This document shows, in pieces, positions 2,281 through 8,600 of a DNA stretch of 13,944 nt. Origin of the DNA: a virus. The stretch's first letter is position 1. Each line of letters begins with the position of its first letter. The DNA lies in UHGV virus genome UHGV-1652516. One strand, 5' to 3'. The position numbers were made by a program, and so were the translations under genes. Below the pieces are notes generated by a model that was not told the DNA's origin, ran no database searches, and saw only the letters and a program-made list of their open reading frames with translations.

Positions 2281-2928
2281 ATGAGAAAACTATTACTACC
2301 GTTATTATTTATGGCTGGGACTGTTAATGCAGCATCAAGCGTAAAGGAGATTTGTACCGATTATACGAAATACCTTGGGCACGTTTACGGCTTTGCTGTC
2401 AGTCAAGACGAATCCATGCGCAAGAAGTTACTGTCAGATATGAAACGCCTTAAACTTTCTGAAGCGATGGTGCAGCAAGAACTGTATAAAGTCGCAACCA
2501 ACGAAAATGCTAAATATCAATATTCTCGCCTGTTAAATCCCGACGCAAACGAGATCAATCGAAGCTCTTTCGATTATATGGTAAAGGCATGCGAAACCGC
2601 TCCTGATTTTGCTATTCCTAGCTGGGGTGTGCTGGTGGCGAGCAATGCCGTTAATAAAGAAGACGTTGGAAGAAATGGCATTGATTCAATCAGAAACTCA
2701 CCGGGAATGCGCCATCAAAACGTTCAGGGTACGCTTGAAGAACGGGCCAGGGGGCCGGGTACAAACTCCCCAATGGGAAACCTCTCCCCGGAGGAATTGC
2801 AAGAGTATAACCAACGGATGGAGCAGTATGAGAAAGCTGCACGCGAAAAAATGGAACAACAAAAAAACGGATCTCTTAATACTTTCCAGCAAGGTTTAAA
2901 AGCGCTTAATTTACCCTATGAATGGTGA
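2281..2928 (+). CDS. Secreted (periplasmic) protein of unknown function with signal peptide; C-terminal region shares a motif with the tape measure protein
   Basis: Start placed at ATG 2281 rather than the track's 2254, because GGTGAGG lies 7 nt upstream and the product then begins with a canonical signal peptide MRKLLLPLLFMAGTVNA|ASS (basic n-region, hydrophobic core, V-N-A cleavage motif). No lipobox. AT-richer than the tail genes. Contains NSPGMRHQNVQGTLEERARGPGT, which recurs in the 1130-aa protein. Confidence 0.75.
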   Translation: MRKLLLPLLFMAGTVNAASSVKEICTDYTKYLGHVYGFAVSQDESMRKKLLSDMKRLKLSEAMVQQELYKVATNENAKYQYSRLLNPDANEINRSSFDYMVKACETAPDFAIPSWGVLVASNAVNKEDVGRNGIDSIRNSPGMRHQNVQGTLEERARGPGTNSPMGNLSPEELQEYNQRMEQYEKAAREKMEQQKNGSLNTFQQGLKALNLPYEW

Positions 2929-2979: not shown

Positions 2980-3456
2980 ATGCGCATCAAACGATTTTTA
3001 CTAGTTATTGCTTTGCTTACTCCGTTTTCATCAATGGCAAATGTAAGCAAATGGTCAACCGGCGAGACTCATGGTGTTCGTTCTTATGCTGTTTCCAGCA
3101 AAGATAATTATACGCTTACATTTGAGTGCGATGTTGAATTTAATAATACGGATCCCAATCAAGTAGGAACACGACTACTCACTCTCATGAAAACAGAACC
3201 TGGCGGTGAGTCATTTGATGCTAAAAAAGAACAAATAACGCTGAAAGTTGGTGATGATGAATATCCTATCAGTTCTATCGGTTCCTCTGTGGGTGATAGT
3301 TACTGGTATGGTTTTTGGTCAGATACCCCTGATATGGAAGTTAAAACATTCGATGCATACGTAGACGGAAAAAAAATCGCAACATTTACGCTACGTAAGG
3401 CCGCAGAGCTTTTCAACGCGGCACCTGAAGATGGCTGCCTGAAGCGCGCAAAATGA
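2980..3456 (+). CDS. Secreted (periplasmic) protein of unknown function, 158 aa, with signal peptide
   Basis: AAGGAG lies 8 nt upstream of the ATG. N-terminus MRIKRFLLVIALLTPFSSMA|NVS is a canonical Sec signal peptide. Two cysteines in the mature part; AT-rich codon usage. No family recognised. Confidence 0.75.
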   Translation: MRIKRFLLVIALLTPFSSMANVSKWSTGETHGVRSYAVSSKDNYTLTFECDVEFNNTDPNQVGTRLLTLMKTEPGGESFDAKKEQITLKVGDDEYPISSIGSSVGDSYWYGFWSDTPDMEVKTFDAYVDGKKIATFTLRKAAELFNAAPEDGCLKRAK

Positions 3457-3473
3457 CCTGTCACAAATGACTA

Positions 3474-4081
<608 letters not shown>

Positions 4082-5680: not shown

Positions 5681-8600
5681 ATGGAAAGAAAAAACGCCAA
5701 CATTGACGATGTGATAAGGACGGTTGAAACCGCCAGCGCAAAAGAGCTGGAAGAGCTTGCAGGTATTCGGGAAGCCGTTGAAGATTTGAAAGGGGGGCGA
5801 GTTGCTACAGTTGATCCTGTCTCTCGCAGTGTGTCGGCATTAAATCGCACAATCGAAAATTCCCGGCCAGACTTTGTGGCCAATGCGCCATCAGTGGACC
5901 CTATTGTTGAGGCAATGAAACGGCTTAATTTAGGGGACGTTTCTCGTGTAGTTCAGGAGGATGTTGCTCTACAGGAACCGCAGGCCAAATCAACTACGCG
6001 AAAGGGTAAAAAACGACGCAAGAAGGCTATAACAGAAGATGTAAAGGCGCAACGGACCGAAGCAGCCGAACACGCTCGCGAAATGTTCGGTCAAAAAGGC
6101 GGTGCGCAAAAAAGCCAAAACCAACGCGATGCGCGTGGTCGTTTTATTGGAAAGTCAGGGAGTAAGGCCGCAGCGGAAGATGCCCGTGCTGAACGTGCTG
6201 AAAAGGCCAGGCGCAAAGAGGATGATGAGCGTCTAAATGCTGAATCAGGTTTATTAAAAAAACTGTCAAAAGTAGCTGAAGGCATAGGTAACCCTTCAGA
6301 GACTCGTGCCGTCGATGCGTTAGGTTATGCCGTTGCTGGTCCATTGTGGGCAGCAGGGAAGGAGCTTGGCGGGATATCAAAAGAAGTTGGTGGATCGCTT
6401 AATGGTGCCAGAAAGTCTATTGCCGATGTGATTCGTGGCAATGACGATAACAGCCGTAGAAAAGGTTTTTTTAGGCGTAAATCGCAAAATAGTGCCGATG
6501 TCGTTCAGGTTAACACCCAAAAACGGACGGTTCAGGAACTTCAGGAGCAGACCAGCGAAATTAAAGAGGGCAATGACAAGATTCTCCGCGCCCTTGATCA
6601 GATAGCCAAAAACACCGGGAAAAAGAAGGGCGGCTTGCTGTCCAAACTATTTAGCCTGTTAGGGAAGGGGGCCGGTGGCGTCGCGTCGTTGTTAATGGGG
6701 CGTGGCATGCTGAAAAAAGCTGGAGCACTCGCTTTTGGCGCTCTGGGGGCAAAGAAACTTGTAGGAATGCTACGCGGTGGTGGCAAGAAGACTCTCGCCC
6801 ATGAAGGCGGAGATTTGGCTGCCCGGGCAGCAGGTAAACTTGGATTAAAGGCAGTTGGTAAAGGGGCGTTACGCGCAATTCCCCTAGTCGGCACAGTGGC
6901 TGGAGGTATTTATGATGCGGTAACCGGTTGGAATGATACAGAAGCGCAACGTCGAGCGTTTGGGCTTAAATCAGGACAAGATCCATCATTCCAGCAAAAA
7001 GCCGCTTATACGTTAGCTAATGTTCTTGATATGGGGGGACTGGTATCTGGTATTAGCAGCGCCATTGGTGAGGTTCTCAAATCACTTGGATTTGAGGATA
7101 TCGGCAATATGTTGCAATCATTTTCGACGGAAAGTATTGCCCAGGCCATTGATAGTGGGATTACCAACTTAGAAACATATATTTCTAACCTTGGCGACAC
7201 CATTTCTACCAAGTTCGATGATTACACAGCAAAGATTGGTGATGCTGTTTCAGCATGGTTTAGCGATACATCTAATAAGCTGCTTGAAAAGCTGGATGCC
7301 ATCAAAGACTTCTTTACTGTCGATAACCTGAAACAGGTTTTCAGTGATGCAATTGATAGTGCAATTGATTTCATTAAGAACCCAGGGAAACATATTAAAG
7401 AGGCGGCTGGTAATATTTGGGATGGGGTTAAAAATTTCCCCGGTAAAGCATTAGATGCAGCGGTTGATGCCGTTAAAAATACCCCTGCGGCAATGATTGT
7501 ATCAAAAATACCCAATCCGATCGGCGAGGCTAATGCGAAAGAAATCACTCCAGAGTTAAAAGCTCCGGTTAATAGCCACCAGGAGACATCTGATTCTAAA
7601 ACTGAATCCGATGCCAAACAGACTAATATTGTTACCCGCGTGATAAATGCGGCACTGGACACGGCGAAAGATAGCAATAAAACAGTTAAAGAAACTGCTA
7701 ATCAGATTATCAATGCAAATGCCGTAGAAACGGGCAATAGCGCGTTGCAGAAAATTGATAAAGCTATTGGTCAAAATAGCTCGTCATCATCGTCGCTTAA
7801 TACCACTGGCACCAGGAATGACATTCAGAAAGCTGCGGATACCTACAACAATGGCAACTTGGATGTAAAAGTCGGAAGTCTTGGCGCTGAAGGTAAGGCA
7901 AATCTCGATAAGTTGGCTCCGTATTTTGCCGAACTAGAGAATAAATACGGTCTTCCAGAAGGCACTCTTTACGCGATTGCTGCAACTGAATCTGGTGGTA
8001 ATCCGTATGCAAAATCCCAAACCGGTGCTCTGGGGATGTTTCAGTTCACGGGGATTGCTCGTGAAGAGACTGGCTTAGCTGAAGGTGAATCGTTTGATCC
8101 TGTGAAATCGGCAGAAGCTGCGGCTCTTCTCATGAGCAAATATCTGAAGCAAGCCAATGGAGACTTAAACGAGGCCATCACTGCATATAATGCTGGGTTT
8201 GGCACTATCAATAAGTGGAAAAAAGGCACAGGTGACTTATCGAAAGAAAACCGTGAGTACGCGATCAAGGTCAATACTCATCGTGCTCGCTATTTAGGTG
8301 GTGAAATCTATACACCTGGAGCAGGAGCACAGGGTGGGGCGCAATATGGAGTGAGGGGACCACTGCCTGATAACGCTGTTATCGATCAGTCTACTGGCCT
8401 GGCGTTTACCCCTGGTGATAGCCCGTTTGAGAAAGGCGGTCTGGTAGACAAAATTGGCAATGCTGTTGGCGTTAACGATCTGGTCAACAAATTCATGAAT
8501 GGCCGGGGTATGCGTCGGGAAGTCGTTCAGGGAACGCTCGAAGAACGTGCACGAGGGAAGGGGACCGCAACAGCAGCTGGCAATGTGTATGTTGATACTC

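Follow-up and report, generated by a model that had tools for sequence, protein, structure and literature searches.

Ltp of Streptococcus phage TP-J34 and gp15 of HK97 are prophage envelope proteins that block DNA injection, with the tape measure protein as their genetic target; the former is a lipoprotein with helix-turn-helix-like repeat domains and the latter an inner-membrane protein. To our knowledge, neither has been reported to copy a motif of the tape measure. In T4, the periplasmic protein Sp acts as an inhibitor of the gp5 tail lysozyme. The delivery of P1 DNA across the periplasm and its block by sim have been a puzzle since the 1980s, and a further source on the P1 sim superimmunity locus is Maillou & Dreiseikelmann 1990. 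The T4 protein Imm binds the T4 tape measure gp29 and blocks genome delivery (bioRxiv 10.64898/2026.03.06.709160). As the original papers are cited in PMC8546580, Sim of P1 is reported to keep superinfecting DNA from the cytoplasm (Devlin 1982; Kliem & Dreiseikelmann 1989). The sim genes are dispensable (PMC10695390), and eight variable regions are recognised in P1-like phage-plasmids, of which the sim region is one (PMC9603915). SimC is the protein annotated as responsible for superimmunity, and the annotation of P1 SimA extends only to a 'putative superimmunity accessory function'.

The whole stretch of DNA analysed here, referred to as the window, comprises 13,944 nucleotides of the virus genome UHGV-1652516 and is a P1-like phage-plasmid. 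It is 98.5% identical to Escherichia phage vB_EcoM-Ro157c2YLVW over 93% of its length, and about 97% identical to phages P1 and P7 over the shared parts. The gene layout was read off the annotated P1 and Ro157c2YLVW records. On the minus strand lie ant1 (598-1635), icd (1632-1853) and the C4 antisense RNA of the immI region (1901-1986; Rfam RF01695, 62.7 bits), followed by the a1b1 targets of the C4 RNA (2055-2107, also minus strand, from the Rfam analysis). A putative counterpart of the P1 C1 operator Oc4/Op51, placed at about 2168-2184 by homology only, that is by alignment to P1 and the P1 annotation of Oc4 and PsimA, falls between the divergent c4 promoter and the predicted simA promoter. 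The latter is predicted in the P1 record only, and a consensus promoter scan of the window did not recover it. Two plus-strand genes for secreted proteins follow, namely a full-length simA-like gene (2281-2928; phrog_3933, E=1e-136), whose open reading frame encodes a 215-aa signal-peptide protein, and the second gene of the cassette (2980-3456; phrog_3429 and hhalign), whose 158-aa product is a YfjT-family relative. The counterpart of the P1 late promoter LPsit (3465-3483, plus strand) was located from alignments to P1 and the P1 annotation. Between it and sit are pmgC, tub and pmgB, and after sit come pmgA, bplA, 16, R and S. The sit gene itself (5681-9073, plus strand) encodes the tape measure / structural injection transglycosylase of 1130 aa and is 97-98% identical to its counterparts in P1-like phages. 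With immI (C4 RNA, icd and ant1) on one side of the simA-like gene and the late promoter of the pmgC-tub-pmgB-sit operon on the other, the slot of gene 2281-2928 was shown to be the P1 sim (superimmunity) locus, outside the late operon.

P1 fills the same slot (c4 promoter/C1 operator to LPsit-pmgC), in the same orientation, with simA, simB and simC, and all products carry signal peptides. The translation of P1 simA, MSYKAGEVIMRKLLLPLLFMAGTVNAASSVKEICTDYTKYLGHVYAFAINDY followed by a stop codon, equals the N-terminus of the window protein cut after about 45 residues, and the residues MRKLLLPLLFMAGTVNAASSVKEICTDYTKYLGHVY of P1 SimA (P1_gp043, 'simA domain protein') match the N-terminus of the 215-aa protein. 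The first 171 nt (~170) of the simA-like gene are 94.7% identical to P1 simA, and the upstream promoter/operator region is common to both. The 53-aa SimA of P1 is a 5' stub of gene 2281-2928, and the window gene is the intact form of simA. Homology to P1 DNA stops at about 2396-2425, the left edge of the variable cassette, and resumes at about 3463, at LPsit; thus in P1 simB and simC have replaced the gene body and its neighbour. Unlike the window, P1 does not have the gene body and hence does not have the motif described below, and SimB and SimC are both unrelated to either cassette protein. Direct comparisons found no homology to SimC or SimB in the secreted protein (BLASTP best E=26 for the 215-aa protein against SimC), and SimC belongs to phrog_14355 and the 215-aa protein to phrog_3933. 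As superimmunity is annotated on the unrelated SimC, the position of the gene in the locus alone amounts to guilt by association. As the reference P1 genome has only a simA stub, any connection of the sim locus with the tape measure is invisible there. The first-pass annotation, made from the letters of the window, had recognised no described family for this gene, which holds in so far as only an accessory annotation exists for it and it is unrelated to SimC, but the gene is in fact full-length P1 simA.

The simA-like gene has a Shine-Dalgarno sequence, GGTGAGG, upstream, and its product begins with a predicted Sec-type signal peptide (nt 2281-2331), the predicted cleavage falling between MRKLLLPLLFMAGTVNA and ASS to give a putative mature N-terminus ASSVKE. 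The protein is predicted to be periplasmic by Sec export. No lipobox was found, since cysteine is absent from the predicted cleavage site of the 215-aa protein, and no hydrophobic stretch is present past the signal peptide. In the AlphaFold2 model the protein consists of a soluble helical domain at about aa 20-125 (pLDDT>90), a motif-bearing linker at about aa 130-170 (pLDDT about 48-58) and, in the 215-aa form, a long C-terminal helix at aa 170-208. C25 and C104 are invariant in the simA-like family, in line with the predicted export. Fold and profile searches gave no recognisable relative of the helical domain and no inhibitor fold was recognised, and no PADLOC model matches either cassette protein or P1 SimB or SimC.

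The secreted protein shares a segment with Sit, as a comparison of the two proteins by several routes showed. BLASTP aligned aa 122-168 (nt 2644-2784, plus strand) with aa 927-969 of Sit (E=6e-9, 23/47 identical) and gave a second, weaker match with a further unit of Sit (unit 2, E=1e-3). The Smith-Waterman score of the secreted protein against Sit was 101 against 40 +/- 5.5 for 1000 shuffles (z=11). When all proteins of the window were compared against each other, this was the sole notable cross-match (E=2e-8; next best E=0.12 and 0.97), and PHROG comparisons matched the secreted protein to the Sit family (E=1.2e-7) and Sit to the family of the secreted protein (E=1.6e-6). That the secreted protein carries a diverged copy of a motif repeated in Sit, as the first-pass annotation had claimed, is thus borne out by BLASTP, Smith-Waterman and PHROG alike. 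The core of the motif, GIDSIRNSPGMRHQNVQGTLEERARGPGT, spans aa 133-161 (nt 2677-2763) and holds N-S-P-G-M-R-H-Q and VQGTLEERARG; the earlier placement at 2675-2766 had the place right and the exact span slightly wide. The homologous segment is longer than the 29 aa then proposed, at about 47 aa. The suggestion that the gene was born from a 3' fragment of the tape measure gene fits this segment of ~47 aa, but not the folded N-terminal domain, as nothing in Sit is related to the helical domain.

The 11 residues VQGTLEERARG and the 7 residues RNSPGMR are identical in both proteins, as had been noticed, and the corresponding nucleotides are identical at 27/33 and 16/21 positions respectively, all differences being synonymous. 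The first-pass description of the segment as an old and conserved copy agrees with these counts. Over the 30-codon core, 19 codons specify the same residue and 12 of these 19 differ synonymously. Across all lineages examined, 29-73% of the codons for identical residues differ synonymously, and in 7/9 comparisons at least half of them do. From this synonymous divergence in the stretch shared by simA and sit it follows that the similarity is old and has been maintained at the peptide level, and, as read from the codons, the pattern points to long-term purifying selection on the shared peptide. A recent duplication, gene conversion or an assembly artefact was rejected, since synonymous sites are heavily diverged across the lineages. 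One Salmonella lineage (L072) is unlike the others in that the NSR(S/G)MRH stretch is identical at about 19/21 nt between simA and sit; this run may be micro gene conversion or chance. The motif segment of the simA-like gene has a GC content of 50% as against 41-43% in the rest of the gene, and GC3 differs little.

Sit is the tape measure protein of P1 (PMC9024508). The window protein matches phrog_2533 over its full length, is annotated as sit in P1-like phages and has its SLT domain at aa 748-857 (nt 7922-8251; Pfam SLT, E=6e-27). Both copies of the motif lie on the plus strand. Unit 1, identified by BLASTP and Smith-Waterman, covers aa 927-969 (8459-8587), with the core NDLVNKFMNGRGMRREVVQGTLEERARGKGT at nt 8474-8566, GMR at aa 943-945 and VQGTLEERARG at nt 8525-8557. 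Unit 2, GIDGLFDKLRNSPGMRKNNV, corresponds to the first half of the unit only and covers aa 998-1017 (8672-8731; BLASTP and unit-unit Smith-Waterman). The two units are related to each other (Smith-Waterman score 56 against 22.8 +/- 4.2, reached by 0/2000 shuffles) and are spaced by 68 codons (GMR at aa 943 and 1011), not about 55 as first stated. Among homologues of the Sit C-terminus the pattern G-M-R..V..G....RA.G.G is invariant. Unit 1 is nearly fixed in E. coli elements, and unit 2 is polymorphic among elements that are ~97% identical, with the variants RNSPGMRKNN, RNAPGMRKSN and INARGMRSNN.

When the last 260 residues of Sit were used in a full HMMER scan of 1.84 billion cluster representatives, no more than 16 relatives came up. 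The distant ones among them, tape measures of 30-37% identity, have the unit ..LG.D.LR.A.G[ML]RHQ once or twice, between the SLT domain and the conserved C-terminal end. The core GMRHQ of the simA-like protein fits this general tape measure consensus better than do the P1 Sit units themselves (GMRRE and GMRKN). A profile of 22 motif instances was compared with 5.8 billion proteins, and among the 82 candidates retrieved nothing but pieces of SimA or Sit was found, so that the motif is specific to these two families. The possibility raised in the first-pass annotation, that it might be a common low-complexity element scattered over unrelated proteins, was rejected by the C-terminus scan and the motif-profile search.

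In tailed phages the C-terminal end of the tape measure leaves the tail first and enters the periplasm after tail contraction. We read the simA-like protein as a periplasmic exclusion protein that mimics a linear motif of the tape measure and serves as a decoy in competition with the entering Sit, a reading that we put forward tentatively and at somewhat less than even chances. In a lysogen, the protein would be exported to the periplasm and would display, in a flexible linker, its maintained copy of what is the best-conserved linear element behind the transglycosylase domain of Sit. This copy would then compete with the Sit that enters from a superinfecting P1-like phage for the partner of the motif, which might be a host envelope component or some other part of the injection machinery, and DNA delivery would stall after adsorption, where P1 Sim is likewise reported to act. 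The YfjT-family neighbour might act together with the simA-like protein or independently of it. The identity of the locus as sim strengthens the exclusion reading, which is still a hypothesis. Since T4 Imm binds its tape measure, the tape measure is a plausible exclusion target in a contractile-tailed coliphage, and the most likely class of the protein is tape-measure-directed superinfection exclusion, new in being built on motif mimicry. A more specific version, which we regard as rather unlikely, is that the G[ML]RHQ unit docks P1-like tape measures to an envelope entry factor and that the secreted decoy has captured that segment.

The presence of the motif more than once in Sit and in distant tape measures would also suit contacts between units or multivalent contacts, and it is therefore possible to envisage that the motif is an element by which Sit associates with itself or docks, for example from one repeated unit to another or onto the SLT domain, the hub or the tube lumen. 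The secreted copy would in that case bind the entering Sit or the emptied tail tip directly and jam the channel. The action of T4 Imm by direct binding of its tape measure is in keeping with this, and the long C-terminal helix of the 215-aa form could serve to oligomerise the protein. However, AlphaFold2 docked the motif onto neither the SLT domain nor the SimA domain, both motif regions being of low confidence, and the 163-aa forms described below do not have the C-terminal helix, and we consider this explanation improbable. In the AlphaFold2 model of Sit the SLT domain is well modelled and everything after it, both units included, has pLDDT<50; the low pLDDT of the motif regions could reflect shallow alignments (18 and 9 sequences) rather than true disorder.

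The decoy reading places the simA-like protein beside the exclusion systems described at the outset, from which it differs in several respects. T4 Imm resembles the proposed role in being a phage-encoded block at the tape measure step in a contractile-tailed coliphage, but it spans the inner membrane several times and binds a folded domain of the tape measure, whereas the protein described here is soluble and predicted to be secreted, and has a peptide in common with the tape measure; the two show no evident homology. In contrast to Ltp-type lipoproteins, the simA-like protein has no lipobox cysteine, and in contrast to HK97 gp15, T4 Imm and P22 SieA its mature form has no predicted transmembrane helix. 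T4 Sp is alike, by description alone, as a periplasm-facing protein directed against a cell-wall-degrading component of the entering tail, but the motif shared here lies outside the SLT domain of Sit. A comparison with Sp brings in another explanation, which we likewise consider unlikely, namely that the motif directs the two proteins to a common structure in the envelope (peptidoglycan, for instance, or a host protein of the periplasm) and that the simA-like protein has another job there. It might protect the cell, in the manner of T4 Sp, from the incoming transglycosylase (lysis from without), or serve in lysogenic conversion.

The simA-like family is small, with 28 clusters at 90% identity, and the longest DNAs that carry its members mostly measure about 90-97 kb, as P1-like plasmids do. 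The forms of the gene were counted in 72 sequences, made up of 69 IMG/VR loci together with the window, Ro157c2YLVW and P1. The full-length gene of 215 aa was present in 26 of the 72, a truncated form of 163-165 aa in 14, the P1-type stub in 25 and diverged forms in 7. Thirteen of the truncated forms (163 aa; among L025-L038) end 2-3 residues past the motif, with ...ERARGPGVAP before the stop codon, and keep the motif; the recombination breakpoint of these 163-aa variants lies at the motif end. The fourteenth (L038, 165 aa) diverges inside the motif and ends ...EERASSSVGAITK before its stop codon. One locus (L034, 9974-12258) has, between its 163-aa variant and pmgC, another YfjT-family allele and then an additional ORF of 394 aa. 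In P0008 and similar 205-aa clusters a frameshift inside the linker leads into an alternative frame, …RECAIKTFRVRLKNGPGG… (the window frame 2609-2899); these frameshifted variants are pseudogenes or sequencing errors.

Across homologues that are 47-60% identical the linker is variable except for the core N-x-x-G-M-R-H-Q; in the simA-like family N139 and R144 never vary, and the conservation of G142 and Q146 is at least 90%. About half of the members retain the second half of the motif, V[QE]G[TS]L.ERA.G, and the others have a cysteine-containing tail in its place. As the motif is the best-conserved part of the linker, recurs in distant tape measures and was found nowhere else, it fits a functional linear motif. 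The locus is a mosaic whose breakpoints adjoin the motif, and in all diverged lineages simA-like genes occur together with YfjT-family genes, in some cases with two copies. It could accordingly be supposed that the active exclusion factor is the YfjT-family neighbour, or neither of the two genes, and that the Sit-like segment is a functionless relic of recombination. Against this, N..GMRHQ hardly varies in homologues of 47-60% identity, despite heavy divergence at synonymous sites, and the truncated forms keep the motif; we regard this reading as very unlikely. A co-evolution of the SimA motif with the cognate Sit was also considered and gave only a weak signal that was not convincing, the variable residues of N-x-x-GMR matching the cognate Sit unit in only 7/14 lineages, which are not independent. 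In the E. coli elements the variant of Sit unit 2 is not tied to the form of simA; the two assort freely.

A search of a plasmid collection gave 275 plasmids that match the region, 81 of which carry at least 80% of the cassette, and a scan of species-representative genomes gave only 4 simA-like loci. The pairing of a tape measure gene with a secreted small protein, which the first-pass annotation had proposed to look for in other prophages, does recur, as a full simA-like gene and a YfjT-family gene together lie directly upstream of pmgC-tub-pmgB-sit in diverged plasmids. In these plasmids, from Salmonella, Klebsiella and others, ant/icd on the minus strand are followed on the plus strand by the simA-like gene, then by 1-2 YfjT-family genes (PF27224) and by pmgC-tub-pmgB-sit. 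Since diverged P1/SSU5-like plasmids keep the pair of simA-like and yfjT-like genes, this pair is probably the ancestral content of the slot, and simBC of P1 is probably a later replacement of it. In L083 and L084, P1-like phages that are further removed, the immI/sim insert is missing altogether and the pairing is absent, and the cassette is thus accessory.

The neighbouring gene (2980-3456) likewise encodes a protein with a predicted signal peptide. A direct hmmscan of its product against Pfam gave no match at E<=1, yet hhalign aligned it with syntenic proteins that have a precomputed PF27224 assignment at a probability of 100% (E=1.7e-49, 35% identity), which identifies it as a divergent member of the YfjT family. 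This family (PF27224) is uncharacterised and is named after a gene of the CP4-57 prophage of E. coli K-12. The YfjT-family protein could itself be an exclusion factor.

If the simA-like protein acts as a decoy, it would be the first case of superinfection exclusion by molecular mimicry of a linear motif of the tape measure; no publication on full-length SimA or on tape measure mimicry was found in a search of incomplete coverage, so that an earlier mention is possible. It would show an exclusion protein built by copying a piece of the weapon that it disarms, and the binding target of the conserved post-transglycosylase motif of Sit would become directly testable, which would offer a handle for finding the P1 entry factor and for explaining the mechanism of sim. 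P1-like phage-plasmids spread resistance genes in Enterobacteriaceae, and the question is also relevant to the incompatibility of these elements and to how they exclude one another.

Further observations concern single loci and the end of the window. Toxin-antitoxin pairs (YhaV/PrlF and Gp49/HI1420-type) are located beside the ant genes in three diverged P1/SSU5-like plasmids (L074, 6498-7451; L080, 7358-8154; L081, 7376-8172), and these insertions are absent from the window. Two short contigs labelled as Bacillota or Paenibacillus MAGs (L076 and L077) have near-identical simA-like sequence and are most likely misbinned fragments of Enterobacteriaceae plasmids. The tail fibre gene S (about 12900-13400 of the window) has several tandem copies of TQKG.VQLSS.TNSTSE.LAATPKAVKAAYDLA.GK, and the window ends within S, 75 bases past the stop codon of a long reading frame.
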